A program made the position numbers and the translations under genes. DNA of 54,453 bases. It comes from Patescibacteria group bacterium. GTDB taxonomy: Bacteria; Patescibacteriota; Patescibacteriia; XYB2-FULL-38-15. Below, piece after piece: positions 3,963 through 54,453 of this stretch. The DNA lies in contig JBAZJZ010000004.1 of assembly GCA_041650995.1 (NCBI GenBank), forward strand, positions 1 through 54,453, in the 5' to 3' direction. The notes beneath the pieces were generated by a model. The model did no database searches. It was not told the DNA's origin and worked only from the letters and a program-made list of their open reading frames with translations. How positions within the stretch are numbered: the first letter of the stretch is position 1; the number at the start of each line of letters is the position of its first letter.

Positions 3963-4007
3963 TATAAATGGCGAAGCTCCGAAAGATCGGAGCTTTATTT
4001 TTATTTT

Positions 4008-7884: not shown

Positions 7885-7924
7885 CTCCGGCGATGAAATT
7901 ATTATAAAAGATCCTGCTGGTCTT

Positions 7925-9988: not shown

Positions 9989-9993
9989 AATTA

Positions 9994-10022
9994 TTGACAG
10001 CAAAAAAATTGACTGCTATATT
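9994..10022 (+). promoter_or_regulatory. Sigma70-type promoter upstream of tRNA-Gly
   Basis: TTGACA, a 17-nt spacer, then TATATT. The -10 element ends 25 nt before the tRNA 5' end. Confidence 0.6.
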
Positions 10023-10047
10023 TTAAGAATAAATTTCCGACCAGCAA

Positions 10048-10119
10048 GCGGGCGTCGTATAGTGGCTATTATGTGTCCTTGCCAAGGACAAGACGGCAGT
10101 TCGATTCTGCTCGCCCGCT
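10048..10119 (+). tRNA. tRNA-Gly (anticodon GCC)
   Basis: Acceptor stem GCGGGCG/CGCCCGC. Anticodon stem TGTCC/GGACA with loop TTGCCAA. T arm GGCAG-TTCGATT-CTGCT. Confidence 0.93.
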
Positions 10120-10159
10120 TATTGTCCGGAAGTTATGAATTACTTTTGATTCTAATCAT

Positions 10160-10720
10160 ATGTCTGTTGAAACCTCCTGGTGGGAAGAAGAAAAACAAAG
10201 GGAAGAGTCTTTAAAAGTGGAAGCTCCAAAAATCGCCGACGAAATTGAAAAGCGCGCTAAGAGCGCTAGCTTAAAAGTTAAAAAAGCCATGGAATTTCAG
10301 GCTAAACGACTGCGCAGTTCAGAGAGTGCCATGTGGCTTGATACTCTTCAAAGATACATAAAGCCGGATATTCTTAAGTTGATAAATAATATAGACTGGG
10401 ATGGCCGTTGGATTGTGGAAAGTTCTTACCCCGGATGGACTACGGAGGATTTTAAAGAATTATATCGGGGCTATTTTGGGGAAGAGCCAGAAATTTATGA
10501 AGAAGCTGAGGGGGCTCCGCTTGTTGAGGGCGCCGAAGATGATTGGGTAAAAGAAAAACTTGAAGAAATAACATTGGAACGAACAACTCTCTTGGAATTT
10601 CTTGAAAATACTACTGATGAAGGAGAACGCGCAGACCTCATAAGCCAAATGGATGAAGTAGATAAAAGATGGAAGGAAGCTTGGGATTTATACAAAAAAA
10701 CCATCAGGGAAGTACACTAA
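10160..10720 (+). CDS. Hypothetical acidic protein
   Basis: 186-aa ORF rich in Glu/Lys and Trp, with no recognisable motif. It is followed by a bidirectional terminator. Confidence 0.6.
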   Translation: MSVETSWWEEEKQREESLKVEAPKIADEIEKRAKSASLKVKKAMEFQAKRLRSSESAMWLDTLQRYIKPDILKLINNIDWDGRWIVESSYPGWTTEDFKELYRGYFGEEPEIYEEAEGAPLVEGAEDDWVKEKLEEITLERTTLLEFLENTTDEGERADLISQMDEVDKRWKEAWDLYKKTIREVH

Positions 10721-10743
10721 AAATAAACCTCATTTTTATAATT

Positions 10744-10767
10744 AAAAAAGACCGCGCGGTCTTTTTT
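10744..10767. terminator. Bidirectional terminator between convergent genes
   Basis: AAAAAAGACCGCGCGGTCTTTTTT: a GC-rich palindromic stem flanked by an A-run and a T-run. Confidence 0.65.
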
Positions 10768-10823
10768 AATTATAAACTTTGTTAATAAAATTAGCGGAAG
10801 CAAAGCAACAGATGCCTTCCCGC

Positions 10824-11456
10824 CTATTCTTTATCAGTAAATACCACCAACCTCCTAGGATAACTTTTGGAAATTTTATTCCAAGTTCCTTCACAAGTGA
10901 TGAGATTGAGGTGGACTTTCCCATCAGTTGAAACAAACACGCCTGAAGCCTTTGCCTTCGGATCATACGTCCGAAATTCACGCACCACAAAAGTAGCAGT
11001 CACTCCTTTTTCATCTTCAACGTACAGCTTGTCTCCCTTACGTAATTTATACAAATTATTAAAGACTCCTACTTTACCATTTTTCCAATAACCATAGTGG
11101 CCGGTAATAATTGCGCTACCCTTATCTCCGGGACGCGGTCCGAAATTAAACCAGGCAGCGCTGGTGGGATCTTTCGGCACGCCCACTGCTCCCTTGGTTG
11201 TAAGACCAACGTGCTCGAGAGTAGTGTCAATATTAATCTTAGGAATTTTAAGACGCACAGGTAACCCATAAACTGCTTGTTCTTTTTTCTGAAGAACGAC
11301 TGCATTTTGAATAAGCGGCGCCGAACCGCTCTGGGTTGAATTTATGGGAACAATATAAAAAAGAAGTGCCAAAGAGAGAATAAACCCCAAGAGAACAAAC
11401 TTGAACAACGTTCCCTTTGGTAATATTTTTAATTGTGAACTTTTCAAGGAGGTCAT
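10824..11456 (-). CDS. Sortase family transpeptidase (class E/F-like)
   Basis: 210-aa ORF with an N-terminal TM anchor. It has a catalytic-His region (AIITGHYGYW), the TLxTC-type motif LITCEG and a downstream Arg (YPRRLVVF). Confidence 0.85.
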   Translation of the reverse strand: MTSLKSSQLKILPKGTLFKFVLLGFILSLALLFYIVPINSTQSGSAPLIQNAVVLQKKEQAVYGLPVRLKIPKINIDTTLEHVGLTTKGAVGVPKDPTSAAWFNFGPRPGDKGSAIITGHYGYWKNGKVGVFNNLYKLRKGDKLYVEDEKGVTATFVVREFRTYDPKAKASGVFVSTDGKVHLNLITCEGTWNKISKSYPRRLVVFTDKE

Positions 11457-11526
11457 AGCGTAAATGGCCCCGCCAAAGACGGGGCCATTATTTTGGCAAA
11501 TTTTTTAATCTTCTCGAGCGCCTAAA

Positions 11527-13389
11527 CTAAATTGTGCCTTTTTTTAGAACTGCAGTAAATGAGATTACGGCCAAGATAAAAATACCAGAGAGTATAATGA
11601 TGTCCCACGGAATGTTTTTCCCTTCAGAAGAAAGCCCCGTGCTGGGCAGTGCCGGAACAGCGGTAGCCACAGTAACCGTGGCGATCGCTAAATCTCTCAC
11701 GGTCATACCGTTAGCAACACCCTCTGCGATGGCCGTGTTCAGTGTGGTTTCCGTGAGATTCGTCCGACAAGTGTAGGTCCAGGTTTCCGTAATATCAAGT
11801 TTTGAATCGCCATTCGTGTCGCCGGAAATATAATTCATAGGACTGCACTTGTCATCAGAGAGAATAACATTGCTTAACGCAACCGTTCCAGGATTCGTAA
11901 TTTTTTCGGTGTAGGTAACCATCCCACCTCCCGCGGAGAGAGTGAGCGGATTCGGAACTTTTGTCACGTGGATCAAAGGCGGCACTGTCGGCAAACCAAC
12001 AACAACCGTAGCACTCGCAATGTCAGTTGCGCTTATGCCATTGGCCCATCCTGTCGCAACAACGGTGTTCGTATGAGTTTCCGAGAGCGTCGTCGAGCAG
12101 GTGTATGTCCATGTCTCACTTACTTGGAGGATGGCGTCTGCGTTAGTGTCCCCGGAAACCAAGGTTATGGGACTGCAAGTATCGCCGATCATCGTCACGT
12201 CGGTCACCGGGACTGTTCCGATATTACGAAGTGTATAGGTATACGCCACGGAGCCAGAACCAGCCGGCAGGGCCAGCGGGCTTGGGACTTTTACCACATC
12301 GATCAGGGGCGGCACGGGCGGGACAACCACGGCCGGGCCGATGTCGTTATTCGTAACAATGCAAAATTTGTGTTCACCCGGACCAAGATTTATGTGACCG
12401 GTCGCGTCGCAATCGCCTGAGAATGTTTGGGTGTAATTTGGATCGGTAGTTTCAGTCACGGCGTGCGTAGGACTCGCCGTGAAAGAATTATTTTCCCCGG
12501 AGGAAACTTGCCTACCGCTAACAAACAGCGGAAAGTCAGCAACTGTTTTGGTCCCGCCATTATCGTTAATGACTGTTTTAACAACGTTAATTGTTCCGAT
12601 TTGTGTCGACCCTCCCGAAGTGGGCGGAGGCGTGACTGCGCATATCGGTACGGTAATGGTGTCTGTATCAGCCGTAACCGTTCCGCCGTATGCCAAAGCT
12701 TGTCCTAGCCATGATACAGTGCTGCCGATGGTAATGCCTGCGGCATCAATGACCGTTCCTACAAACGTAGAATTGGCGCCAATTGTTGTGGCCGCAGCTG
12801 GAGCCCAAAATACATCACACTCTGATGCGCCACCAGTTAATGCAATAGTTGAATTGGCTGCTGGATTAAGCTCAGCGGGCGTCCTGAAAATGTAGGTTCC
12901 AGTGCCTTGGAGAGTCACTGTCGTGCCTGTGGTTATATTCATTGCGCCAGTACTAGAATAACAGCCAGGAGTAAAAGTTCCGGGAGGAAGAGGTCCGGCA
13001 CCATCAATATCAATTGCATTAAGAGCAACAATAGCACCGATAGATGTACAGGTTTGAATATTGAGACCGTCAACGGCATTATTTAGAGCAGCGTTCTGAT
13101 CTAACCCTGCTTGGGCATATGCGGCATTGTTCACTTGTGTTGTGCCAGTAACTGCGAGTGTTGCACCACCGCCTGGGAATGCTCCAACATATCCGAGAGC
13201 TGCTGTTCCAGCAACTCCGGTAATTGTTGTTAGCCCGGTGTTATAGTTAAAGGTGTCGGCAAGAACACCGTAGGTTGACGCCGTCCCAAGAGATGGTGAC
13301 GTTGCCGCTAGCGCAGGAATCGGCCCGACCAGACCGAGCACAAAGGCAAAACCCAACACAACTACTAAAATCTTACTAGATGTTTTCAT
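11527..13389 (-). CDS. LPXTG-anchored surface protein with an ice-binding-like (DUF3494-type) N-terminal domain and two DUF11-like repeats
   Basis: 620-aa ORF with a signal peptide. The N-terminal region is a Thr/Gly/Ala-rich beta-solenoid type (LGTASTYGVLA ... IGANSTFVGTVIDAAGITIG). There are two repeats of ~115 aa (VPPLI.V.KVP.PL.L.AGGG.V.YT..I.N.GTV....V...D.CSP). The C-terminal sorting signal is LPSTG, then a TM segment, then KKGTI. The gene sits directly upstream of the sortase. Confidence 0.85.
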   Translation of the reverse strand: MKTSSKILVVVLGFAFVLGLVGPIPALAATSPSLGTASTYGVLADTFNYNTGLTTITGVAGTAALGYVGAFPGGGATLAVTGTTQVNNAAYAQAGLDQNAALNNAVDGLNIQTCTSIGAIVALNAIDIDGAGPLPPGTFTPGCYSSTGAMNITTGTTVTLQGTGTYIFRTPAELNPAANSTIALTGGASECDVFWAPAAATTIGANSTFVGTVIDAAGITIGSTVSWLGQALAYGGTVTADTDTITVPICAVTPPPTSGGSTQIGTINVVKTVINDNGGTKTVADFPLFVSGRQVSSGENNSFTASPTHAVTETTDPNYTQTFSGDCDATGHINLGPGEHKFCIVTNNDIGPAVVVPPVPPLIDVVKVPSPLALPAGSGSVAYTYTLRNIGTVPVTDVTMIGDTCSPITLVSGDTNADAILQVSETWTYTCSTTLSETHTNTVVATGWANGISATDIASATVVVGLPTVPPLIHVTKVPNPLTLSAGGGMVTYTEKITNPGTVALSNVILSDDKCSPMNYISGDTNGDSKLDITETWTYTCRTNLTETTLNTAIAEGVANGMTVRDLAIATVTVATAVPALPSTGLSSEGKNIPWDIIILSGIFILAVISFTAVLKKGTI

Positions 13390-24400: not shown

Positions 24401-24501
24401 TGAGTTGACAAAATCATTTTTTGGTATTATAATTCTGGATTGAAGAACTTAATTTTTCTGCTCTTACCGGCGGAATTTTTGTCTAAATCAATTTAAATTA
24501 T
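24401..24501 (+). promoter_or_regulatory. Copy 1 of a ~100-bp promoter-leader repeat (duplicate of the typA upstream region)
   Basis: TTGACA (24405-24410), a 17-nt spacer, then TATAAT (24428-24433). The leader is about 80% identical by eye to 29295-29394, including the AAATTATG at its end. Confidence 0.75.
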
Positions 24502-29294: not shown

Positions 29295-29394
29295 TCAGTT
29301 GACAAAATCATTTTTCTATATTATAATTCAAGATTGAAGAAATTAATTTTCTGCTTTCCGGCGGATTTTTTATTTAAACCGGTTATAAATTATG
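29295..29394 (+). promoter_or_regulatory. Copy 2 of the promoter-leader repeat: the typA promoter and 5' leader
   Basis: TTGACA (29299-29304), a 17-nt spacer, then TATAAT (29322-29327). The leader ends at the typA ATG (29392). Confidence 0.75.
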
Positions 29395-33412: not shown

Positions 33413-34804
33413 ATGAAATCAAAATTCCTGCCACTTTTTTTACTTTTTACTTTCATCATCACCGCCGGCCCGATTTGCAAAGGAACGTCGCAAGAAGCTC
33501 AGGAAGCAATGAAGCCAATAAACCTTGTCTACTGGCGGGTTTTTGACGACCAAGACGCTTTTGATGAAATCATCACAGCTTACAAGGCAATCCATCCGAA
33601 TGTTTCTGTCTCTTATCGTAAATTGCGCATGGAAGAATATGAAAAAACTCTTCTAAACGCCCTGGCCGAAGATCGCGGGCCAGACTTATTTTCCATTCCA
33701 AACACTTGGGTGCGCGAATACCAAACCAAAATTCTGCCAATGCCCAAAACTATCACTCTGCCTTACCAGATAACTACAGGCACCGTTAAAAAAGAAACTA
33801 CTATCCAATTGCAAACTACATCGACTCTTTCTCTCCGGGCGCTCAGAACCGATTTTATGGATCAGGTGGCAAAAGATGTCGTTTTAAAATATCAGGCAGG
33901 AGATCAACCGGCCGAAGACAGAATCTATGGCTTGCCCCTTTATCTTGATACTCTGGCACTTTTTTACAATCGCGATATTTTAAATGCCTCCGCTATTCCC
34001 GAACCGCCCCGAACTTGGGCGGAATTTTCAGAGGATGTTAAAAAAATCGCTAAAATTGATAAACAAGGAAATATTTTACAATCTGGCGCGGCGATTGGCA
34101 CGGCAAACAATGTCGAACGAGCGCCGGATATTCTTTCGCTTTTGATGATGCAAAATGGAACAATTATGGCTGATGAAAATGGTAACGCCACTTTTGCCGC
34201 GATGCCCGCGGGAGCAACTCTCATAAACCCTCCCGGCGAAGATGCCTTGGGTTTTTATACTGATTTTGCCTCACCTTATAAAGAGGTTTACACCTGGAAT
34301 AACAATATGCCCAACTCGCTTGAAGCGTTTAGTACCGGCCGCGCGGCTTTCTTCTTTGGCTACTCATATCATATTCCGCAAATCAAAAACCTCGCGCCAA
34401 AATTAAATTTTGCCATCGCAAAAATGCCTCAAATTGAAGGCAGCCAAGAAATAAATTTTGCCAACTATTGGGTGGAAACAGTTTCCACAAAAACTAAAAA
34501 TCAAAATGAGGCCTGGGACTTTTTACAATTTGCCGCTAAAGCCGAGAATGCCCAAAAATATTTGGCTAAAACAAAAAAACCGACCGCACTTCGCTCCCTT
34601 GTGGCGAGCCAGATTGAAGATCTTGATTTAGCAGTCTTTGCTTCCGAACTTTTAACGGCCAAATCTTGGTACCAGGGAATGGACGCTCTAGCCATGGAAA
34701 AAATTCTGAATGAAATGATTGAAAATGTAGTTGCCGGCACGCAAACTCTAAAGGAAGCAATCGGCTTGGCCCAGGGAAGAGTTAATCAAACAATACGGCA
34801 GTAA
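33413..34804 (+). CDS. ABC transporter extracellular solute-binding protein (family 1, sugar type), orphan
   Basis: 463-aa ORF with a signal peptide. It has SBP_bac_1-like blocks (YWRVFDD, GPDLFSIPNTW, YGLPLYLDTLALFYNRD). No permease or ATPase gene is adjacent. Confidence 0.8.
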   Translation: MKSKFLPLFLLFTFIITAGPICKGTSQEAQEAMKPINLVYWRVFDDQDAFDEIITAYKAIHPNVSVSYRKLRMEEYEKTLLNALAEDRGPDLFSIPNTWVREYQTKILPMPKTITLPYQITTGTVKKETTIQLQTTSTLSLRALRTDFMDQVAKDVVLKYQAGDQPAEDRIYGLPLYLDTLALFYNRDILNASAIPEPPRTWAEFSEDVKKIAKIDKQGNILQSGAAIGTANNVERAPDILSLLMMQNGTIMADENGNATFAAMPAGATLINPPGEDALGFYTDFASPYKEVYTWNNNMPNSLEAFSTGRAAFFFGYSYHIPQIKNLAPKLNFAIAKMPQIEGSQEINFANYWVETVSTKTKNQNEAWDFLQFAAKAENAQKYLAKTKKPTALRSLVASQIEDLDLAVFASELLTAKSWYQGMDALAMEKILNEMIENVVAGTQTLKEAIGLAQGRVNQTIRQ

Positions 34805-34830
34805 TTAGGTAATTTGGTAATTAAGTAATT
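34800..34830. repeat. Left arm: four tandem GTAATTnn octamers directly abutting the start of the four-helix-bundle gene
   Basis: GTAATTAG GTAATTTG GTAATTAA GTAATT, followed immediately by the ATG. Confidence 0.8.
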
Positions 34831-35199
34831 ATGGAGCTGGAAGATTTGGAAATTTATAAATTAGCAAGGGAGATTGGCAAAGACGCTTGGAAAATTTATA
34901 ACATATTAAATTGGCAAGACAAAAAGATAATGGGCGATCAATTTATTGCCGCCATAGACTCAATCGGCGCCAATATCTCGGAGGGCTTTGGCCGTTATCA
35001 TTTTCTTGATAAAAATAAATTTAACTACAACTCAAGGGGCTCTTTATTGGAAAGTGTATACTGGCTAAACTTGCTATCTGAAAGAGAAAAAATAACCAAA
35101 GAAACGGCAAATATTTTGCAAAATAAACTTTCAAAATTACACCTGAAATTAAATAATTATATAAATTCAACTAAGCAGCAAGTCAATCGACCCAAATAA
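34831..35199 (+). CDS. Four-helix-bundle protein (family historically annotated as 23S rRNA intervening-sequence protein)
   Basis: 122-aa ORF. The blocks LEIYKLAREI, QFIAAIDSIGANISEGFGRY and SRGSLLESVYWL are characteristic of this family. Confidence 0.85.
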   Translation: MELEDLEIYKLAREIGKDAWKIYNILNWQDKKIMGDQFIAAIDSIGANISEGFGRYHFLDKNKFNYNSRGSLLESVYWLNLLSEREKITKETANILQNKLSKLHLKLNNYINSTKQQVNRPK

Positions 35200-35229
35200 T
35201 TACCTAATTACTTAATTACTCAATTACCC
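35197..35229. repeat. Right arm: four tandem nAATTACn octamers between the four-helix-bundle stop and the first pilin-like gene
   Basis: TAATTACC TAATTACT TAATTACT CAATTACC. Its reverse complement matches the left arm at 25 of 30 positions, with mismatches at the two non-core positions of each octamer. Confidence 0.8.
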
Positions 35230-35658
35230 ATGACATTCAAAAATAAAATTGCTTTAATTTTACTATTTACTGTTTGTTTGTCATTACTCGTTACGCTGCC
35301 GGTTTACGCTTCCTGGCCGGCGACGCCGCTTCTACCACCGTGCACTTCAAGCGGTAACTGCGGATTTAACGATTTTATTTTACTCGGCATTAATTTAACT
35401 AAATTAATTTTAGGAATGGTTGGCTCACTTGCCCTGCTTTTCTTTATTTATGGAGGCGTTGTATTTCTAATAGCCGGAGGAAAATCAGAAATGATTGACA
35501 AAGGAAAAAAGATTATCACGAACGCCGTAATTGGCGTGGCGATAGTGCTTGGCGCCTGGATAATTGTTAACTTTGCTATTGCTGCTATGACTGGCACGCC
35601 GGTTAGTAACGTTAAAATATTTGGCACACAAGATTGGTGGAAAACCCCAGGAGAATAA
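35230..35658 (+). CDS. TrbC/VirB2-like (T4SS-pilin-like) small secreted membrane protein, paralog 1 (divergent)
   Basis: It has a signal peptide and a short Cys-containing head. The two-helix module reads LILGMVGSLALLFFIYGGVVFLIAGGKSEMIDKGKKIITNAVIGVAIVLGAWIIVNF. Confidence 0.7.
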   Translation: MTFKNKIALILLFTVCLSLLVTLPVYASWPATPLLPPCTSSGNCGFNDFILLGINLTKLILGMVGSLALLFFIYGGVVFLIAGGKSEMIDKGKKIITNAVIGVAIVLGAWIIVNFAIAAMTGTPVSNVKIFGTQDWWKTPGE

Positions 35659-35706
35659 ACGACTACTTCGCCTTCCGGAGAAAGTACAACTCCATAATTT
35701 AAAAAT

Positions 35707-36408
35707 ATGAACCCAAAAAAATATTTTAAATTTGTGATTTATATCTGGTCGATTTTATTAATGACCCTGATGTCTACCCAAATGACTTTTGCCGTGACTC
35801 TAGAAGAATTGCGTGCTTTGTCCGGAAGAATGGAAGCTGATTGCGCGGGGATTGAACCAGCAACTCGAATACTAACCGATTTAAATAATCGCATAACCGC
35901 CCTGGAAGAAACAAAAAATAGAAATCAAGAAGTATATGATCGTATGCGACCAGATTGTGGAACTACCATAACTATAGAAGATTGCGAAGCTCAACTTGAC
36001 TTAATTTCAAGCCAGATAACCCAACTTCTTGATTTAATTTCACAACGAAACACTGAAGTAGAAAAAGCTCAGATAGAAATTGACAAATGCCGAGCCGCAA
36101 CTGAAGCCTCTCAAGCGACAACGGGAGCAATAACTGGGACTACTGGCCCAATAGAATGGACTTCGCCAATCGGCGCTGTTTCTCCGACTCAACTTATCGG
36201 TAAGGCTATCAAAACTGTTTTAGGAATTCTCGGCGCGATTGCCCTTTTAATTTTTGTCTACGGCGGTTTTGTCTGGATGACTTCCGGCGGCAGTCCGGAA
36301 AAAATAAAAACGGCGCGCATGACTTTGGTTTGGGCGGTTCTTGGCATGGCCGTAATTTTCTTAAGTTATGCCGCGGTTGATTTTGTCCTTAAAGCTTTTG
36401 GCGTTTAA
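35707..36408 (+). CDS. TrbC/VirB2-like protein, paralog 2, with a coiled-coil/Cys head
   Basis: It has a signal peptide and a ~130-aa helical head with 4 Cys. The module reads LIGKAIKTVLGILGAIALLIFVYGGFVWMTSGGSPEKIKTARMTLVWAVLGMAVIFLSYAAVDFVLKAFGV. Confidence 0.75.
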   Translation: MNPKKYFKFVIYIWSILLMTLMSTQMTFAVTLEELRALSGRMEADCAGIEPATRILTDLNNRITALEETKNRNQEVYDRMRPDCGTTITIEDCEAQLDLISSQITQLLDLISQRNTEVEKAQIEIDKCRAATEASQATTGAITGTTGPIEWTSPIGAVSPTQLIGKAIKTVLGILGAIALLIFVYGGFVWMTSGGSPEKIKTARMTLVWAVLGMAVIFLSYAAVDFVLKAFGV

Positions 36409-36409
36409 A

Positions 36410-37054
36410 ATGAAAAAATCTATCAAAAATTTATTTTTCTTTTCTCTGGCGGTATCTTTCTTTTTGACAAGTTTTTTTCCTTTGTCAGTGCTTGCCTTCA
36501 CGACTTGCAGCACAGACGCGGACTGTGGCGGAGAAGCTGGCTCTTGCGCCACTTATGGCATAATTGTCTCCTGTTTTGATTCAAGCGGAAACGAAGCACC
36601 CAGCTTCATCGGAAATTGCCGTTTAGTTGCCTGCCCTTCTGGGTACACCTGCCAAACTCGCCCGGCAGGTAATTATTGTTCTTCGCCCACCCCCACCATG
36701 GCCGCCACAACGTGTCCAGAAGGTCAAGAATTTAGAGATGGCCGATGCCAAATTATTACTGGAACCGATGGCGCGCCGGAAAAAGTTGAATTGGAAAATC
36801 CTCTTGGCGGCGGAACGGGAATAACTTCTGTCCCGCGCCTTATCGGCAACATTATCAAAACTATTTTGATGGTTGTCGGCGCTTTGGCGCTTGCGATGTT
36901 TGTTTATGGCGGCTTTACTTGGATGACCTCTGGCGGCAGTTCGGAAAAAATACAAAAAGGAAAAAATATTTTAATATGGGCAGTGATTGGGCTTGTAGTA
37001 ATTTTTTCTAGCTATACTTTAGTAGATTTTTTATTAACAGCCTTTGGATTATAA
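36410..37054 (+). CDS. TrbC/VirB2-like protein, paralog 3, with a Cys-rich head
   Basis: The ATG is at 36410 (MKKSIKNLFFF). The head has 12 Cys. The module reads LIGNIIKTILMVVGALALAMFVYGGFTWMTSGGSSEKIQKGKNILIWAVIGLVVIFSSYTLVDFLLTAFGL. Confidence 0.75.
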   Translation: MKKSIKNLFFFSLAVSFFLTSFFPLSVLAFTTCSTDADCGGEAGSCATYGIIVSCFDSSGNEAPSFIGNCRLVACPSGYTCQTRPAGNYCSSPTPTMAATTCPEGQEFRDGRCQIITGTDGAPEKVELENPLGGGTGITSVPRLIGNIIKTILMVVGALALAMFVYGGFTWMTSGGSSEKIQKGKNILIWAVIGLVVIFSSYTLVDFLLTAFGL

Positions 37055-37056
37055 AA

Positions 37057-37728
37057 ATGTTTTTACCGCAAAAAATTTTTATCTTCAAAACCTGGACTAT
37101 TTTTTCTATTTTTTTCCTTTTTCTCCTACTACCACTTTCCTTAGTCGAAGCGGCCGAAGAATGCCGTTGCTACCTCACCTCGCCATACTTCCATGATGAT
37201 CGTGACAGATGTTTAACCGACTGCGCTATAACTTGCCGCGATCTCGGCCCGGAATGGGCCAGAGAAGCAGGCGTTGAAGGGGCATCGGCCATCCAATTTT
37301 TGCCTACATGCGAATCTTTTGATAGGCAGTGGCAATGCCAATGTTTTATCCGCCAACCAGGTATAGAAATATCTGCTTGCGAAGATTATTGTGAATCAAT
37401 GGGATTGACATACCTTACTAAGGAAGAAGAAACCGAGATACCGCCCACCGAAGAAGAGCTTTTCCCGACTTATAAAATAAAGTCTCCCATTGGCGAGGTA
37501 ACCGGACCAGAGCTTATTGGCAGAATCATTAAAACAATTCTTGGTGTTGTTGGCGCCCTGGCGCTCGCGATGTTTGTTTTTGGCGGATTTACTTGGTTGA
37601 CCTCGGGCGGAAGCCCTGATAAAATAAAGAAAGGCAAAGATATTTTAATGTGGGCAGTAATTGGTCTTATTATAATTTTTACAAGTTACACATTGGTTGA
37701 TTTTATCCTTACAGCATTTGGATTATAA
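37057..37728 (+). CDS. TrbC/VirB2-like protein, paralog 4, with a Cys-rich head
   Basis: The head has 12 Cys and is unrelated in sequence to the paralog 3 head. The module reads LIGRIIKTILGVVGALALAMFVFGGFTWLTSGGSPDKIKKGKDILMWAVIGLIIIFTSYTLVDFILTAFGL. Confidence 0.75.
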   Translation: MFLPQKIFIFKTWTIFSIFFLFLLLPLSLVEAAEECRCYLTSPYFHDDRDRCLTDCAITCRDLGPEWAREAGVEGASAIQFLPTCESFDRQWQCQCFIRQPGIEISACEDYCESMGLTYLTKEEETEIPPTEEELFPTYKIKSPIGEVTGPELIGRIIKTILGVVGALALAMFVFGGFTWLTSGGSPDKIKKGKDILMWAVIGLIIIFTSYTLVDFILTAFGL

Positions 37729-37773
37729 TCTTCTACAAAATATTTGTAGAAAACCTGAAAGGGGGTGAAGAAA

Positions 37774-38142
37774 ATGTTAAAAAAAGTATTTTTCTGCTTA
37801 ACCATCCTGAGTCTTTTGACTCCAGTTTTGGTCTCCGCGCAAACCAATGATATCTTGGGCCTGAATATCATTAACAACGCGAATATCGGCTTGCAAGCTT
37901 CAGATCCGAGAGCTGTTGCCGCGAGAATCATTAACGTGGCATTGGGCTTCTTGGGCATCATTGCCGTGGTCATTGTTCTTTACGGCGGCTTTATGTGGAT
38001 GACGGCGGCTGGCAACGAGGAAAGAATTTCCAAAGCGAAACAAATCCTCACTGCCGGTATTATCGGCTTGGTCATTATTGTAATGGCCTGGGCAATCGCT
38101 TCGTATGTTGTCAGAACTTTGATGAACGTTACAAATACCTAA
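37774..38142 (+). CDS. TrbC/VirB2-like protein, paralog 5 (short head)
   Basis: The ATG at 37774 follows the SD AAGGGGG. The module reads ARIINVALGFLGIIAVVIVLYGGFMWMTAAGNEERISKAKQILTAGIIGLVIIVMAWAIASYV. Confidence 0.75.
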   Translation: MLKKVFFCLTILSLLTPVLVSAQTNDILGLNIINNANIGLQASDPRAVAARIINVALGFLGIIAVVIVLYGGFMWMTAAGNEERISKAKQILTAGIIGLVIIVMAWAIASYVVRTLMNVTNT

Positions 38143-38151
38143 TTTAGAAAG

Positions 38152-38175
38152 TGGGGTGGGGTTTTCCCCACCCCA
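38152..38175 (+). terminator. Strong GC-rich hairpin inside the pilin-like array (internal terminator or processing site)
   Basis: A 10-bp stem TGGGGTGGGG/CCCCACCCCA with a TTTT loop. The 3' tail is T-poor (TTCTCG). Confidence 0.45.
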
Positions 38176-38196
38176 TTCTCGATTATCCCGAAGTTT

Positions 38197-38619
38197 ATGT
38201 TTTTAAAAATAGGAAAAGTAAAAATTTTTAAATTTATCTGTGTCGCGGCAGTTCTTTTTACGATTTTTAGCGCGAATCTTGCTCTCGCCCAGCCGGCTGA
38301 CGGAGAAGACGCTGGAGACACAAGCGGCGTTCGTTCCGGACTTGGCGAGGCGGCCGAAGTTGCTGGCATTCCCCAAGAAGGAGAGAGTTCAATTCCCGCG
38401 CGCATTGGCAGCATTATTTCTTACGCCTTGGGTTTTGTCGGAGTTGTCTTTTTAATTTTAATGATCGCCGGCGGCTTGATGTGGATGACAGCGGCGGGCA
38501 ACGATGAACGAGTTAACAAGGCAAAAAGCTTAATAACGAACGCCGTGATTGGCATGGTAATTGTTTTTTCCGCTTACGCCATTACTTATTTTGTCACGGA
38601 AACTTTACTCGGCGACTAA
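38197..38619 (+). CDS. TrbC/VirB2-like protein, paralog 6
   Basis: The module reads RIGSIISYALGFVGVVFLILMIAGGLMWMTAAGNDERVNKAKSLITNAVIGMVIVFSAYAITYFV. Confidence 0.75.
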   Translation: MFLKIGKVKIFKFICVAAVLFTIFSANLALAQPADGEDAGDTSGVRSGLGEAAEVAGIPQEGESSIPARIGSIISYALGFVGVVFLILMIAGGLMWMTAAGNDERVNKAKSLITNAVIGMVIVFSAYAITYFVTETLLGD

Positions 38620-38697
38620 TAAAGGGTATTCACCCTGTACTTGCTTGCTCGTTCGAAAATTAAAATTTAATTTTCATTTAACTCCCCCACTGCGCGA

Positions 38698-39189
38698 ATG
38701 AAAAAATATCAAAAAATTTTAATTGTCTCTGTTCTGCTGCTCGTCGGATTTTTTATTTTTTATCAAGCAACTTCAGCGGCAGTTTTCGGCGGCCTTGAAA
38801 GCGCGCGGAAGTCAGCCGGGTTTTCCGAAGAAACAAGTCTGGAAGCGAGAATCGGATCAATTATTTCCATTGTTTTAGGCTTTGTCGGGGTAATTTTTTT
38901 AGGGCTTACTCTTTATGGCGGATTTATTTGGATGGTGGCGCGTGGCAATGAGCAGGAAATTGAAAAAGCAAAAAAACTTATTGAAGCGGCTGTTATTGGT
39001 TTAGCGATTGTCTTTGCCGCTTACGCCATTACTTATTTTGTAACTTCCCGTTTGTTGCCGACCGAGGGCGGCGGCGAAGTAACCTGCGCGGAAACGGAAA
39101 CCCCCTGCTCTTGTCCGGGAGGAACATTTTGTATGGATCCCACTGTTTGGAGCGGCTGTGACGCTTTTTGTGCCGGCGAAGAACCGTAA
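38698..39189 (+). CDS. TrbC/VirB2-like protein, paralog 7, with a C-terminal Cys-rich tail
   Basis: The module reads RIGSIISIVLGFVGVIFLGLTLYGGFIWMVARGNEQEIEKAKKLIEAAVIGLAIVFAAYAITYFV. It is followed by EVTCAETETPCSCPGGTFCMDPTVWSGCDAFCAGEEP. Confidence 0.75.
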   Translation: MKKYQKILIVSVLLLVGFFIFYQATSAAVFGGLESARKSAGFSEETSLEARIGSIISIVLGFVGVIFLGLTLYGGFIWMVARGNEQEIEKAKKLIEAAVIGLAIVFAAYAITYFVTSRLLPTEGGGEVTCAETETPCSCPGGTFCMDPTVWSGCDAFCAGEEP

Positions 39190-39206
39190 ATTATTAAATT
39201 ATAAAT

Positions 39207-39620
39207 ATGTTTAAATTCCAAAAAATCTTTTTAATCTGTTGCGTTATTTTTGCGTTGGCCTCTCTTTTAACTCCTCTTTTTTCCCAAGCCGCGCCTTCTG
39301 ATGCTCTAGAAAAATTAAAATCAGTCGGCGGTGAAGCTTACGGAGTCGGCGCCGAAGAACCACGGAGCCTCCCCGAAATTATCGGAGGAATTATTCAAAC
39401 CGCCCTTAGTATTTTGGGGATAGTCGCCGCGCTTCTAATTATCTACGCGGGCTATATTTGGATGACGGCCCGCGGCAAAGAAGAGCGTGTTACAAAAGCA
39501 AAAGAAACTTTGGAAGCGGCAATTATCGGTTTAATTATTATTATGGCTGCTTATGCCATTACTTATTTTGTCGTGGACCGCTTGATGCAAGCTTCAAGCA
39601 CTCCAACCGTAGCGCCTTAA
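39207..39620 (+). CDS. TrbC/VirB2-like protein, paralog 8
   Basis: The module reads IIGGIIQTALSILGIVAALLIIYAGYIWMTARGKEERVTKAKETLEAAIIGLIIIMAAYAITYFV. Confidence 0.75.
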   Translation: MFKFQKIFLICCVIFALASLLTPLFSQAAPSDALEKLKSVGGEAYGVGAEEPRSLPEIIGGIIQTALSILGIVAALLIIYAGYIWMTARGKEERVTKAKETLEAAIIGLIIIMAAYAITYFVVDRLMQASSTPTVAP

Positions 39621-39631
39621 TTTAAAAAAAT

Positions 39632-40036
39632 ATGAAAATTATTTCTAAAAAATTATTTGTCTCAACTGTCCTTGCTTCAATTCTCATTCTTTCTGCTCTG
39701 CCTGTTTTTGCTCAAGTGGAAGAACTACAAAATTTTGGCAAGGCAGCTTATGGCGAAGCTCAGGCTCAGTATGCCGAAGAACAGGGGCCACTCATCATTG
39801 CCGGTAAAATCATAAATATCGCTCTTGGAGCAATAGGCACAATCGTGGTAATTCTCTTTATTTTTAGTGGATTTCTCTGGATGACGGCGGCGGGCAACGA
39901 AGAAAAAATTACTAAAGCCAAAAGAATTCTTACCAATGCGATCATTGGAACCGTGATTGTCGTGATGGCCTATGCCATTTCCTACTTTGTTATTAATCAA
40001 TTACTCCGAGCCTCTGGCGCGCCAGTTACTCCGTAA
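39632..40036 (+). CDS. TrbC/VirB2-like protein, paralog 9
   Basis: The module reads IAGKIINIALGAIGTIVVILFIFSGFLWMTAAGNEEKITKAKRILTNAIIGTVIVVMAYAISYFV. Confidence 0.75.
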   Translation: MKIISKKLFVSTVLASILILSALPVFAQVEELQNFGKAAYGEAQAQYAEEQGPLIIAGKIINIALGAIGTIVVILFIFSGFLWMTAAGNEEKITKAKRILTNAIIGTVIVVMAYAISYFVINQLLRASGAPVTP

Positions 40037-40051
40037 ATTGCAAATTATAAA

Positions 40052-40082
40052 ATCCCCCGCGAGATAGTCGGGGGATTTTTTT
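40052..40082 (+). terminator. Terminator closing the pilin-like array
   Basis: An 8-bp stem ATCCCCCG/CGGGGGAT followed by T7. Confidence 0.85.
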
Positions 40083-40084
40083 AT

Positions 40085-40144: not shown

Positions 40145-40678
40145 TTAGAACGGGCTGCCGATATTCACCTCCTGGCTCTCCCATCCGACACAGAACTGGC
40201 GTTCCCGGTCGGAACGAATCACCGGCCGTTCGAAGTTCGGGGCGAGGTACGCCTCGAACTCGAAGTGGTGTGTCTCGCAGCCAGACCGGAGGTTGGTCTC
40301 GGCGAGCGGAGCGTAGAACTGCCCCTCAACGCGCGGCGGGAGGAGTGGCAGTCCCGCGTAGAGGTCGGAAAAGGACAAATCCACTCCGTCCATCCTGACG
40401 CGAACGTACCAGTCCGTGTTGTTGACGACACGGACGAGGTGGGCGTCACGCCACTGGTTCGGGTACCCGTGGCCCTCAACGAAGGCCAGACCCTCCGGCG
40501 GAGGCGGGGGAATGAAGTATCCGCCGCCGTAGCCGCCACCGTAGCCCATGGCTCCTCCCATCGAAGTGCCGTAGGCTGCCGGCGGAACGTAGCCCGAGAA
40601 CCCCGGGGCGTAGCCGCCCCAGATGCCGCAGCCGACCGGCAGGATCGCGAAGAGAACCGCGAACACGTACTTCGTCAT
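40145..40678 (-). CDS. High-GC putative lipoprotein with a Gly/Tyr-rich segment
   Basis: 177-aa ORF with a signal peptide ending in the lipobox LPVGC. A GYGGGYGGGY/Pro-rich stretch follows, then a ~110-aa domain. Its start overlaps the upstream stop (ATGA). Confidence 0.7.
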   Translation of the reverse strand: MTKYVFAVLFAILPVGCGIWGGYAPGFSGYVPPAAYGTSMGGAMGYGGGYGGGYFIPPPPPEGLAFVEGHGYPNQWRDAHLVRVVNNTDWYVRVRMDGVDLSFSDLYAGLPLLPPRVEGQFYAPLAETNLRSGCETHHFEFEAYLAPNFERPVIRSDRERQFCVGWESQEVNIGSPF

Positions 40679-41073
40679 GGCTGCCTCCCCTCGAGGGCGT
40701 CCAAACGCCTCTCGAAATCAGTTGCCTGGTCTTCGAGTCCACGCGCTCGCTCTTCGAGAGCTGGCGTTGATACCGGGCGACCATAGGCCGGGTAGTAGTA
40801 GGACGGATCCACCCGTCCGTAACTCCCGTACCCGTAATAGCCGCTGTAGCCGCGCCAGCCCATGAAAAACTCGGGGTGAGCTTCGAGCGCACGACCTTCG
40901 GCCCGAACGCGATCAGCTTGAGCTGACATGAGATCGGCCGAAGCCGCCTCCATGGGACCCGGCCCCATGAAACCGCTGGCGGAGTACTCGAGCCCGCCAC
41001 TTCGAAGTCCCGTATGGGACGTGAAGCAGCCAGACATCAGGAACGCCACGAACGTCACGAGAGCAACCCTCAT
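40675..41073 (-). CDS. High-GC putative lipoprotein with a Tyr/Gly-rich segment and a C-terminal coiled coil
   Basis: The ATG at 41073 lies 6 nt after GGGAGG (a GTG at 41076 is also possible). The signal peptide MRVALVTFVAFLMSGC has a lipobox. It also has a GYSGYYGYGSYG..YYYPAYG segment and a heptad-like LEERARGLEDQATDFERRLDALEG. Confidence 0.7.
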   Translation of the reverse strand: MRVALVTFVAFLMSGCFTSHTGLRSGGLEYSASGFMGPGPMEAASADLMSAQADRVRAEGRALEAHPEFFMGWRGYSGYYGYGSYGRVDPSYYYPAYGRPVSTPALEERARGLEDQATDFERRLDALEGRQP

Positions 41074-41155
41074 CACGCACCTCCCTGGGGCCCAAAGCCC
41101 CTTGTTTTAGCGAAAAAATGAACTTCCGTACCCCCATTCAGAGGCAGGACATTTT

Positions 41156-52095: not shown

Positions 52096-54453
52096 TTACA
52101 ACACCGTCACGGAAATGGGACGGCTGCGGGAGGTGGAGCCGGATTTATCTGTCACTTCGGAATAAAGTTGATACGAGCCTGGCGTGGGAGTGGCGCTCCA
52201 GCGGAAAGTGAAAATGCCTTCGGCTGGGGTGGAATATGTTTTTAATAATTCCGGTTCGCCAGAGCTTTTGGCGTAAAAAGAAATTTCCGTGATATCGGCA
52301 ATGTCCGGAGTTTCGGCAGTGACTGAGAGCGGGAACATTGAAGCGTAGAAGCTCGCGCCGTTTCGTGGAGCGGTAAAAGTAATTTGCGGCGGTAATTCTT
52401 CTGCCAAAAGATTAAAATTAATTTCCGCGGAATTGAAATCGTCAATATCGTCGTAAGCCGTGGCGCGCAGAGTATGAAATCCATTTGAAATGGAATTCGG
52501 GATTATGAGATTCGCGGTGAACGGCGCGGTGTTGGACATCCCCACCTTTTGTTCGTCAACAAAATATTCCACGCGGGAAATTATTCCTCGCGGGGCGGAG
52601 ACAGTTACAGAGGCGGTGGCTTCGCGCGAATTAATCGTGCCGTTCGGAGCGGGATAGGTAATGGAAATAGTTGGTTTGTTTTGCGGCAAATGGATATCGT
52701 CGTAGCCGGTTGGAAGTTCCTGAGTATTAATTGTATATCCTTGCTCCTCGGCCCATTTGGCAATTGGCGCTTCCCAATTGGCAAATTGCGGATCGGACGC
52801 GGGGTTTTCCGGCGGCGGGCCCTTTGGGTTTTCTTTATTTACATAGAATAAAATTGTATGGACTTCACGGAACTTTTTTTCTTCAATCGTGGTCGGCGGG
52901 GTATTTTCCGTCGCCAGTTTTCCCGAAATTCGGTCAATTTTTACTACTGTTTCCGCGCCAAGTTCGCCTTTTAAAATCGGTTTATCGGTTTCGGTCGGTT
53001 CTGGCGCAGTAAAATATTCCACGGGCGTATCTTTTAGCGCTTTTTTCATAAAGGAATTCCAAATCGGAGCGGCGACAAAGACTCCGTCAGCGCCGCGTTT
53101 CATTTCCTTGTTATCGTTATTGCCTGCCCAGACTCCGGCGACGAGCGATGGAGTATAACCCATTGTCCAGCCGTCGCGCCAGTCGTTTGTCGTACCAGTT
53201 TTTGCCCCAACCGGCCGGCCAGGCAAAGTGAGCGGACCGCCCGCACCGAAAATATAAGAGCGCGCCGCGTCATCAGACATTACGCTTTGAATTTGCCGCG
53301 CGGTTTGCCGAGACACTACCTCTTTTCCTTTGTCTTCTTTCCATTCTTCAAGCACTTGGCCTTTGGCATCTTCAATTTTTAAAATCAGAGTAGTATCATG
53401 CAGCACTCCGTCGGCTGCAAAAACGCCGAAAGCGGCGGTATGTTCCAGGAGTCGCACTTCGCCACCGCCCAAAACGAGAGACAAGCCAAAACGAGAACGA
53501 TCATTTAAAGTTGTATAGCCCATGGCTTGCGCCAAATTTAAGACATTGTCAATTCCCGCGAGATATAAAGTTTTGACCGCAGGAATATTTAAGGATCCCG
53601 CCATCGCGCTTCGCATGGAAACCGGCCCGTGTTCTTTATCATCATAATTGTGTGGGACATAATCTTTAGTGTCAGTTTTAAAAGTCGTAACCAAATCAAA
53701 AAGCGTGGTTTCCGGAGTGAAACCTTTCTGAAAAGCCGTGGCATAAGCGATCGGTTTGAAAGAGGAGCCGGGCTGGCGGAGCCGAAGCGAGACATTTACA
53801 TTTGGTTCGAATTTACAATTTTTTCCGGGGTCGCATCCTTCAGGTTCGGGATCGGCAAAATAATCTTTTGAACCAACCATAGCCAGAACTTGTCCGGTTT
53901 TTGGATCAATGGCCACAAGCGCGGCGTTCCAAGCGTTATATTTAGTGGAATTTTTTTCCGCGTTTTCATCAATTGCCTCTTCAGCAAATTTTTGTTTGTC
54001 AAAATCAAGCGAGGTGTAAACTTTTAAGCCGCCCTGTTCCACAATTTTTTCGCCGTATTTTTCCGTAAGTAATTCTTTAACATACATTACAAAATGCGGA
54101 GCAGTGATTGATTCTTTTTTAGCAACGACTCTACTTAAGATGTCAATTTTTTTTGCTTCTTCGGCTTCTTCTTCTGTGATGTATCCTTCCTCCGCCATGC
54201 TATCTAAGATATATTTTTGGCGGTCGAGAAGATCGTCTGTGTGACTACCGTGGGGAGAATAATAAGTTGAGGCTTTGGGCACGGCCGCCAAAGTTGCTGC
54301 TTCAGCGAGATCTAAATCCTCGGCGTTCTTGCCAAAATAAGTTTGAGCCGCGGATTGGATGCCATAAGCGGTTGAGCCGTAAGGAATTTCATTAAAGTAC
54401 ATTTTTAAAATTTGGTCTTTGGAAAATTTTCTTTCGATTTGGATAGAGAGGGC
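52096..54453 (-). CDS. Penicillin-binding protein 1A family (GT51 transglycosylase + transpeptidase) with C-terminal Ig-like extensions; the N-terminus lies outside the window
   Basis: The frame stays open to the window end (ALSIQIERKFSKDQILKMYFNEIPYG). The transpeptidase motifs are SSFKP, SLN and KTGTT. The C-terminal ~200 aa is beta-rich and repeat-like. Confidence 0.9.
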   Translation of the reverse strand, partial: ALSIQIERKFSKDQILKMYFNEIPYGSTAYGIQSAAQTYFGKNAEDLDLAEAATLAAVPKASTYYSPHGSHTDDLLDRQKYILDSMAEEGYITEEEAEEAKKIDILSRVVAKKESITAPHFVMYVKELLTEKYGEKIVEQGGLKVYTSLDFDKQKFAEEAIDENAEKNSTKYNAWNAALVAIDPKTGQVLAMVGSKDYFADPEPEGCDPGKNCKFEPNVNVSLRLRQPGSSFKPIAYATAFQKGFTPETTLFDLVTTFKTDTKDYVPHNYDDKEHGPVSMRSAMAGSLNIPAVKTLYLAGIDNVLNLAQAMGYTTLNDRSRFGLSLVLGGGEVRLLEHTAAFGVFAADGVLHDTTLILKIEDAKGQVLEEWKEDKGKEVVSRQTARQIQSVMSDDAARSYIFGAGGPLTLPGRPVGAKTGTTNDWRDGWTMGYTPSLVAGVWAGNNDNKEMKRGADGVFVAAPIWNSFMKKALKDTPVEYFTAPEPTETDKPILKGELGAETVVKIDRISGKLATENTPPTTIEEKKFREVHTILFYVNKENPKGPPPENPASDPQFANWEAPIAKWAEEQGYTINTQELPTGYDDIHLPQNKPTISITYPAPNGTINSREATASVTVSAPRGIISRVEYFVDEQKVGMSNTAPFTANLIIPNSISNGFHTLRATAYDDIDDFNSAEINFNLLAEELPPQITFTAPRNGASFYASMFPLSVTAETPDIADITEISFYAKSSGEPELLKTYSTPAEGIFTFRWSATPTPGSYQLYSEVTDKSGSTSRSRPISVTVL

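Follow-up and report, generated by a model that had tools for sequence, protein, structure and literature searches.

A predicted operon of nine T4SS_pilin paralogs in a Falkowbacteria-like bacterium of the Candidate Phyla Radiation

Nine tandem genes and their shared module

The contig JBAZJZ010000004.1 of a Patescibacteria group bacterium (assembly GCA_041650995.1) was analyzed over its whole length of 54,453 bp, which is called the window here and whose numbering is used for all positions. According to the list of its open reading frames (ORFs), nine co-oriented genes, g1 to g9, occupy the plus strand between 35230 and 40036 (Table 1). From g1 to g9 the spacers measure 48, 1, 2, 45, 54, 78, 17 and 11 nt, the fourth being counted from the corrected start of g5, which confirms the series of consecutive genes with short spacers described in a first-pass annotation of this DNA. 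This start is most likely the ATG at 37774, giving a product of 122 aa that matches its orthologs, rather than the GTG at 37765; for g3, position 36410 is most likely the start rather than 36368. A broader hidden Markov model (HMM) built from 410 modules of this kind did not find further pilin genes in the window.

Every product starts with a predicted Sec signal peptide, read from the sequence as a start rich in Lys, then a core of hydrophobic residues, and a cleavage site of AxA/VxA type (such as PVYA-S, LVSA-Q and PVFA-Q, the hyphen marking the site). A variable region of 18-128 aa and a shared module follow, so that the three-part architecture claimed at first reading was recovered in each gene. 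The mature proteins contain two long hydrophobic helices with a short Lys/Glu loop between them (9/9). When the modules were aligned over ~76 aa, five positions were invariant, four of them Gly and one Leu. Full-length identity of the paralogs to g1 is 22-31% and module identity to g3 is 32-78%; the paralogous modules are also visible as the DNA repeats D1-D3. The product of g1 carries a conserved C..G.CGFNDF motif ahead of its module and has a divergent loop. Two heads had been credited with 12 Cys each; counting gave 10 for both g3 and g4.

In HMM searches all nine proteins exceeded the gathering cutoff of PF18895, T4SS_pilin (26.6 bits), with scores of 32.2-50.8 bits and E-values of 1e-7 to 2e-13, which is well outside chance level, and the same family was matched by all 56 members of an alignment of relatives (A4). 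The earlier assignment to T4SS_pilin, named after type IV secretion systems (T4SS), was therefore right. The NCBIfam model NF045849 gave 36.4 bits for g5 (E 3e-9) and 26.8 bits for g3 (E 3e-6) against a curated cutoff of 40, and by these scores the two proteins are related to the NF045849 proteins but are not equivalogs.

The topology of conjugative pilins, also proposed at first reading, was reproduced in AlphaFold2 models of two products. Helices 141-173 and 178-211 of g3 form a helix-loop-helix hairpin (pLDDT 80-86), as do helices 45-77 and 82-120 of g5 (pLDDT ~90); the head of g3 was poorly predicted and showed small beta-hairpins. From signal peptide and hydrophobicity pattern we infer that both mature ends would lie outside the cell and the loop in the cytoplasm. 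Cys-rich extensions appear confined to the N- and C-termini, that is, to the two ends predicted to be outside.

Module classes were assigned by best match, with g1 as class 1, g2-g4 as class A, g5 as class 5 and g6-g9 as class B; the references are the window's own paralogs, which makes the classes a first approximation and not a phylogeny. Two subfamilies had been distinguished before, and of these the grouping of g2-g4 stood, while g5 proved to be a class of its own and not a plain member of a g5-g9 group.

The contig is an ordinary piece of chromosome, with galU, a SBP_bac_1 gene for a solute-binding protein (SBP), typA, rpoB, rpoC, ruvB, polX and genes for a penicillin-binding protein, glycosyltransferases, a sortase and Lamin-tail-domain surface proteins. 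RpoB is 95-96% and SBP 89% identical to proteins of the Candidatus Falkowbacteria metagenome-assembled genome (MAG) JACRNW01 (loci L008/L011 of our collection) and to those of other 'Patescibacteria group' MAGs; the names of the homologs are consistent with this. On the basis of the RpoB identity to these genomes the organism was placed as a Falkowbacteria-like bacterium from the Candidate Phyla Radiation (CPR); it is ultrasmall and probably host-dependent. As judged from gene content and arrangement, the nine genes are a chromosomal operon of VirB2-like (T4SS_pilin) paralogs.

Table 1. Features of the pilin array and its surroundings (window numbering). Bit scores refer to PF18895 (T4SS_pilin) and, where named, to TrbC/VirB2 (PF04956).
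Feature	Position	Strand	Description
g1	35230..35658	+	class-1 pilin, 142 aa; PF18895 40.6 bits
g2	35707..36408	+	class-A pilin, 233 aa; 128-aa coiled-coil head, 4 Cys; PF18895 37.1 bits
g3	36410..37054	+	class-A pilin, 214 aa; 10-Cys head; PF18895 50.8 bits, TrbC 22.5 bits
g4	37057..37728	+	class-A pilin, 223 aa; 10-Cys head unlike that of g3; PF18895 48.2 bits
g5	37774..38142	+	class-5 short pilin, 122 aa; proposed major subunit; PF18895 38.9 bits
g6	38197..38619	+	class-B pilin, 140 aa; short acidic head; PF18895 35.6 bits
g7	38698..39189	+	class-B pilin, 163 aa; 41-aa C-terminal tail, 6 Cys; PF18895 32.2 bits
g8	39207..39620	+	class-B pilin, 137 aa; PF18895 45.5 bits
g9	39632..40036	+	class-B pilin, 134 aa; PF18895 33.5 bits
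Shine-Dalgarno site of g5	37760..37767	+	AGGGGGTG; strong
GC-rich stem-loop after g5	38152..38175	+	GGGGTGGGG/CCCCACCCC, TTTT loop, perfect stem, no T-run
Intrinsic terminator ending the array	40050..40083	+	ATCCCCCG...CGGGGGAT, then T7; read from sequence
Orphan SBP_bac_1 solute-binding protein gene	33413..34804	+	Pfam SBP_bac_1 3e-28; weak GanS/MalE-like NCBIfam matches

Gene order, heads and the signals of g5 in related arrays

The array was compared with five related loci (L002, L004, L006, L008 and L012), of which L006 is a complete 886-kb genome. In these at least five related species the same nine genes lie in the same order between the SBP gene and rpoB, within a shared layout that runs from galU and the SBP gene through the nine pilin genes and a pair of small minus-strand genes to rpoB and rpoC. 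Each gene agrees in length with its counterpart in the relatives, one-to-one, and the best module matches run from g1 to g9. The modules gave dN/dS values of 0.00-0.09 against L002 and L004, the two closest relatives, where these could be estimated, the comparison of g9 with L004 being saturated. A hairpin with T-run comparable to the terminator of the array also follows g9 in L002, L006 and L012.

A scan of a genome collection holding one genome per GTDB species, seeded with the modules of g2-g4, yielded 76 loci, nearly all from CPR bacteria, with arrays of 2 to ~15 pilin genes; since class-A modules served as seeds, these loci are biased toward genomes that contain class A. Among the 45 arrays with at least four genes each, 31 show a perfect 1-A-5-B order, with 879 concordant versus 73 discordant gene pairs and with the class of g1 in first position of the ordered arrays; ORF starts in the distant loci are our own calls. 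Minimal arrays consist of exactly one gene per class, and the main exceptions to the order are arrays of Saccharimonadia.

Alignment of the orthologous arrays showed that the heads of g2-g4 diverge and their modules are 92-99% identical between close relatives. For g2 and its ortholog in L002, protein identity is 17% in the head versus 99% in the module, so that the hypervariability claimed for the heads was borne out for large heads between lineages; at the DNA level the same pair is mosaic (head 17-47%, module 92-98%). Against L004 the head of g2 is conserved (80%). The head of g3 is 92% identical to that of L002 and replaced in L004 (39%), with a module identity of 93% to both, and the head of g4 is 33-42% identical in all five relatives compared, next to module identities of 76-99%. 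By these comparisons, cassette-like replacement has exchanged the Cys-rich heads of g2-g4 among closely related genomes.

When all loci were considered, the 139 heads of at least 70 aa fell into 95 BLAST clusters. Cys was present in 98 of 104 large heads, in even number in 83, and the modules are nearly Cys-free (28 Cys in total over 410 modules). Pfam searches of the large heads from the window genes and from several large relatives did not find known domains, with the exception of two giant fusions. These proteins of 2,105 and 2,212 aa (L069 9824-16141 and L083 9824-16462, from a Kuenenbacteria MAG and another MAG) start with a signal peptide and a T4SS_pilin module, which are followed by Big_5, TIG, DUF1554 and fn3 domains; as predicted from these matches, they are pilin modules fused to adhesin-type repeats.

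The shortest paralog, g5, differs from the others in its conservation and in its signals. It is 94-100% identical among the relatives, head and module alike, on a scale on which RpoB is 88-96% and SBP 76-93% identical, and its family is uniformly 119-135 aa long (735 matches). The duplex of its Shine-Dalgarno (SD) site with the anti-SD sequence reaches -15.3 kcal/mol in the window and in four relatives. All other array genes of these five loci are weaker than -10 kcal/mol, and at seven of the eight positions no duplex is stronger than -5.6, the outlier being g4 of L006 (-9.6). In distant arrays a strong SD site precedes 46% of class-5 genes versus 0-1% of the genes of other classes.

The internal hairpin that had been noticed downstream of g5 is real. 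The spacer between g5 and g6 folds at -27 kcal/mol, and the GC-rich hairpin is kept 3' of g5 in L002, L004, L006 and L008. Stable hairpins of unrelated sequence also follow 27% of internal class-5 genes in distant arrays, versus 0-4% of the genes of other classes. We propose that the stem-loop acts as a partial terminator or as an mRNA-stabilising element. Because g5 is short, 94-100% conserved and the only array gene with a strong SD site, and because a hairpin lies 3' of it, it is probably the major subunit; its signals are what one would expect of a main subunit made in abundance, with less read-through into the genes downstream.

A promoter-like sequence, TTGACC-17-TAAAAT with an extended TG, is located at 37597-37625 in the 3' end of g4, ~150 nt before g5. 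It lies within the conserved coding module and could give g5 a transcript of its own. A 54-nt element that occurs twice with 89% identity (24403-24456 and 29297-29350), upstream of a kinase-like gene (24513) and of typA (29392), contains a perfect TTGACA-17-TATAAT promoter. It is an example of a strong promoter in this genome, and none like it is found before g1.

The first-pass annotation had suggested an interchangeable repertoire, in which the paralogs would be alternative versions of one subunit, used singly or in varying mixtures. Such a repertoire would serve to evade recognition or to adapt to different hosts, as has been proposed for trwL of Bartonella and virB2 of Anaplasma, and has been suggested for CPR bacteria as well (PMC12102498). 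The high divergence of the paralogs, the replacement of class-A heads between close relatives and the very large diversity of heads would all fit it. However, one-to-one orthology and gene order are kept across species, the four module classes recur in conserved order across CPR lineages, and the modules are under strong purifying selection. Moreover, all nine genes are intact, possess signal peptides and are packed as one operon, strong translation signals occur in g5 only, and invertible elements, silent cassettes and a diversity-generating retroelement (DGR) were looked for and none was found. We rate interchangeable use as decidedly unlikely, and on this point the earlier reading was set aside. 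Fixed orthology, class order and the unique signals of g5 point to differentiated, co-expressed roles instead, and we consider it fairly probable that the operon encodes a differentiated and co-expressed set of subunits from which a filament or conduit of T4SS type would be assembled on the surface.

The solute-binding protein gene and other neighbours

In 41 of 50 informative arrays, a homolog of the SBP gene that precedes the nine genes is found inside the array or no more than 400 nt upstream, at identities down to ~30-35%, and three further arrays have one within ~500 nt. Single-pilin loci mostly do not have one (18 of 20). As indicated by this linkage, the SBP is a conserved partner of the array. 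No ABC permease or ATPase gene was found anywhere in the window, nor did the 10-kb flanks in the relatives contain one.

This linkage could be taken to mean that the filament bridges to the host and that the SBP captures host-derived sugars or other molecules, so that the array would be part of an uptake device. The persistence of the SBP gene at such low identity and its orphan state without a nearby permease speak for this idea, and reviews have speculated that the T4SS pilus of CPR bacteria is an uptake conduit (PMC12857230, PMC11665869). Yet all of this evidence comes from context, and gene order retained in reduced genomes could account in part for the synteny with galU and housekeeping genes. 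A transporter component was found neither in the window nor in the 10-kb flanks of relatives. In addition, the Saccharimonadia arrays L072, L075 and L076 have no SBP gene. We regard an uptake device as highly improbable.

A gene for a 122-aa protein of the four-helix-bundle/23S_rRNA_IVP family lies between the SBP gene and g1 (34831-35199). It is bracketed by inverted AT-rich TAATTA(G/C)(G/C)TAATT repeats (34801-34830 and 35196-35229) and, since it is absent from all five related arrays, seems to be a small insertion. Avd, an accessory protein of DGRs, is of the same kind as this family, and the gene lies directly ahead of the hypervariable heads. The array was nevertheless rejected as a DGR target: no reverse transcriptase domain was present in any ORF, no template/variable repeats were found, the repeats in the array being the paralogous modules only, and the Avd-like gene is absent from all relatives.

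Downstream of the array, two overlapping small genes on the minus strand (40145-41076) encode proteins of 177 and 133 aa with lipoprotein-like signals (..LPVGC and ..LMSGC) and Gly/Tyr-rich regions. The region has a GC content of 0.51 versus ~0.42 and long ORFs on both strands. The pair had no match in Pfam or NCBIfam and is kept after the array in close relatives at 50-79% identity.

At 6409-13389 the window encodes further probable surface proteins, namely two Lamin-tail-domain proteins (one of them with PKD), a sortase and a 620-aa ice-binding-like/DUF7507 protein; this cluster is possibly another cell-surface or attachment locus. On the minus strand at 1935-5618 a CHASE2-domain adenylate/guanylate cyclase gene lies beside that of a FecR/DUF5667 protein; together they form a sensory module, which is noteworthy for a reduced genome. 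Also on the minus strand, a class A penicillin-binding protein gene (52096-54402) reaches the end of the contig and its transglycosylase domain is cut (profile positions 110-177 only). Many MAGs of CPR bacteria, including the complete genome OZ246416.1, carry the title 'uncultured Gammaproteobacteria bacterium', and by gene content and similarity they are Patescibacteria.

Known systems, secretion machinery and a filament model

Tandem PF18895 arrays have already been published, and the nine-gene array is thus a described kind of locus. Using PF04956 and PF18895, 441 VirB2 arrays of 2-11 tandem genes were found in 3,035 Patescibacteria genomes, with a paralog identity of 25% on average and 54% at most (Quinonero-Coronel et al. 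2025, PMC12102498). The array studied here is like them in its Pfam families, tandem co-orientation, gene number (nine, within 2-11), paralog identity of ~25%, CPR host and absence of a relaxase. In a limited check of terms, that article returned no mention of signal peptides, nor of cysteine or N-terminal domains for pilins, and the 1-A-5-B order, a strongly translated member followed by a hairpin, Cys-rich head cassettes and SBP linkage were not found under the terms checked. In Southlakia epibionticum an essential series of six pilin genes is part of the T4SS cluster (Wang et al. 2023, PMC10633639; also covered in PMC12102498 and PMC12857230); in contrast to this Saccharibacteria cluster, the present array lies between an orphan SBP gene and rpoB. 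According to a 2025 review, the S. epibionticum system is the only Gram-positive-type T4SS with VirB2-like pilins.

The NF045849 family (Mbov_0395/MMCAP2_0565), pilin-like conjugal transfer proteins from integrative and conjugative elements (ICEs) of Mycoplasma, is alike over the whole two-helix module and also comes from a monoderm, but it is a single small gene in a mobile element and not a chromosomal array. Its family name suggests that some monoderm conjugation systems may have a related small pilin-like protein. The near-threshold matches of g5 and g3 to it sit uneasily with the literature view that monoderm MPF_FATA systems lack VirB2-like pilins.

Classical conjugative pili are homopolymers of one pilin. 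The TrbC/VirB2/TraA pilins of F, RP4 and Ti and of archaeal Ced/Aeropyrum systems share with the window proteins a signal peptide, two hydrophobic helices and a short polar loop, but the mature window proteins are longer and some bear Cys-rich heads or tails of 100-130 aa. Type IV pili, type II secretion system (T2SS) pseudopili and chaperone-usher pili are encoded by operons with major and minor pilins. Their logic is analogous, with an abundant subunit that has strong signals and a stem-loop, low-abundance subunits and some adhesins; folds and assembly machines are unrelated, and the likeness is an analogy without homology. The virB2 arrays of Bartonella, Anaplasma and Ehrlichia belong to diderm pathogens, lie inside or beside the virB operon and may serve to vary contacts at the surface; they encode small pilins that lack added domains, and the copies are more alike than here. 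To our knowledge, a four-class ordered architecture has not been reported for them. Tandem amplification and divergence of VirB2 are common to the present array, Bartonella Trw (tandem trwL/virB2 and trwJ) and the Anaplasma/Ehrlichia arrays, and the Patescibacteria arrays were likened to those of Bartonella and Anaplasma (PMC12102498).

Following homology and the literature, we propose that the hairpins would be extracted out of the membrane and would polymerise to form a filament or conduit on the surface. In this model g5 (class 5) would be the headless, near-invariant and strongly translated bulk subunit, and g6-g9 (class B) and g1 (class 1) would be low-abundance accessory subunits. The products of g2-g4 (class A) would bear outer domains rich in disulfides, which are swapped between lineages in the form of cassettes and probably set host-surface specificity. 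A monoderm-type T4SS with a VirB4-family ATPase, encoded elsewhere in the genome, would serve as motor. Polymerisation, dependence on a T4SS and host binding are thus predicted features of the model.

Most Patescibacteria encode such a T4SS: VirB4 was detected in 2,417 (80%) of the 3,035 assemblies surveyed, and only 1,135 of 1,948 assemblies have pilin genes close to virB4 (PMC12102498). Around the orthologous arrays, the 10-kb flanks yielded no domains of the T4SS machinery. The ORFs flanking related pilin loci were screened for Walker A motifs; the first candidates for a T4SS ATPase proved to be RecG, ClpB, ChlI and PilB-type proteins and were rejected. In L029, a CPR MAG, an 856-aa VirB4/VirD4-family ATPase lies in one locus with a single class-A pilin, and its family comprises more than 2,895 CPR proteins at 60-90% identity. 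A comF-recG setting recurs at several of the single-pilin loci that lack an SBP gene, and at one of these a VirB4/VirD4-family ATPase is encoded too; this setting matches the T4SS context of ABY1 (PMC12102498). L029 (2858-14000) and L052 (746-10929) represent this second context, where one short class-A pilin gene has comF, alr and recG as neighbours, alongside genes for unannotated proteins of 255-400 aa and of 896 aa.

Several observations weigh against a filament of this kind. As stated in the first-pass annotation, secretion machinery is missing nearby: domains of VirB4, VirB6, VirD4 or a relaxase were not detected in the ORFs of at least 100 aa on the 54-kb contig. In the related complete genome OZ246416.1 (GCA_965231095.1), which has its pilin array at ~662-667 kb, a copy of the L029-type ATPase was not among the best 120 of more than 2,895 matches. 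Gram-positive-type T4SSs normally have no pilus, and we know of no visualisation of a CPR T4SS pilus. The assignment of major and minor subunits rests on sequence signals only, and it is difficult to see how heads of 100-130 aa, or the fusions of ~2,000 aa found elsewhere, could be accommodated in regular subunits of a VirB2-type helical lattice.

The search results add to these points. For TrbC/VirB2 (PF04956) the window paralogs stayed at 13.5-22.5 bits, below the cutoff of 27.9, with seven sub-threshold matches and two proteins without a match at E<=1. The same model was matched at E<=1e-3 by 31 of the 56 relatives (best E 2.5e-8), which links the T4SS_pilin and TrbC/VirB2 families, although by threshold the window proteins are still not members; of the resemblance to TrbC/VirB2 claimed earlier, the link through relatives is real and direct membership did not hold. 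When the models of g3 and g5 were compared with the PDB in Foldseek, no match at E<0.001 was obtained and generic helical hairpins, including ATP-synthase subunit c, prevailed. The best pilin for g3 was the Aeropyrum conjugative pilus 8dfu at rank 19 (E 3, target-normalised TM 0.61), and for g5 no pilin was among the top 50. As modelled, the hairpin fold is compatible with a pilin but not discriminating. Sequence profiles of the module (A2) and of the g5 family (A5) gave only chance-level matches in the PDB and no pilin.

The generic hairpins returned by Foldseek, the lack of linkage to T4SS genes, the adhesin-like fusions with Big_5, TIG and fn3, and the usual absence of pili from monoderm T4SSs would also be expected if the two-helix module were just a membrane anchor, a display module or an embedded part of a channel, which keeps extracellular domains at the cell surface and from which no filament is polymerised. 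Against this stands that five of the nine proteins (g5, g6, g8, g9 and g1) have almost nothing to anchor, and that conservation and translation signals are both strongest in g5, which has no head. Furthermore, the module is about as conserved as RpoB, loop motif included, and this would rarely be seen in an anchor with a passive role. It shares homology with TrbC/VirB2 and with the pilin-like protein of the Mycoplasma ICEs, and in Saccharibacteria such arrays lie inside an essential T4SS cluster (PMC10633639). An anchor without polymerisation therefore seems unlikely to us.

Beyond the preferred reading of the operon as a co-expressed set of subunits, a more specific proposal is put forward tentatively, as a possible rather than a probable one. 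SBP-linked arrays of Falkowbacteria, Magasanikbacteria and related CPR bacteria might encode a heteropolymeric VirB2-type monoderm pilus, with class 5 as major subunit, classes 1 and B as fixed minor subunits and class-A proteins as carriers of recombination-swapped, disulfide-rich adhesin heads, working together with the orphan SBP. Since the pili known from the VirB2 family are homopolymers whose tip is a separate VirB5 protein, such a division of labour among VirB2 paralogs would be a new architecture of T4SS pili.

The locus itself does not establish a new kind of system. In reviews the role of T4SS and pilin arrays in Patescibacteria is called "completely unknown", though they are essential in the one species tested, and the comparison presented here sharpens this question and turns the picture of many divergent pilins into specific predictions. 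Proteins of the g5 type would dominate transcripts and proteome, and transcript 3' ends would accumulate at the hairpin after g5. Class-A heads would follow host identity, with recombination breakpoints at the junction of head and module (NP(L/I)G/SPIG), and the orphan SBP would interact with the pilins or depend on them. If this proves true, T4SS pili with major, minor and adhesin subunits would exist, an organisation otherwise familiar from the unrelated type IV and chaperone-usher pili, and a division of labour of this kind would offer a concrete handle on host recognition by uncultivated CPR bacteria.

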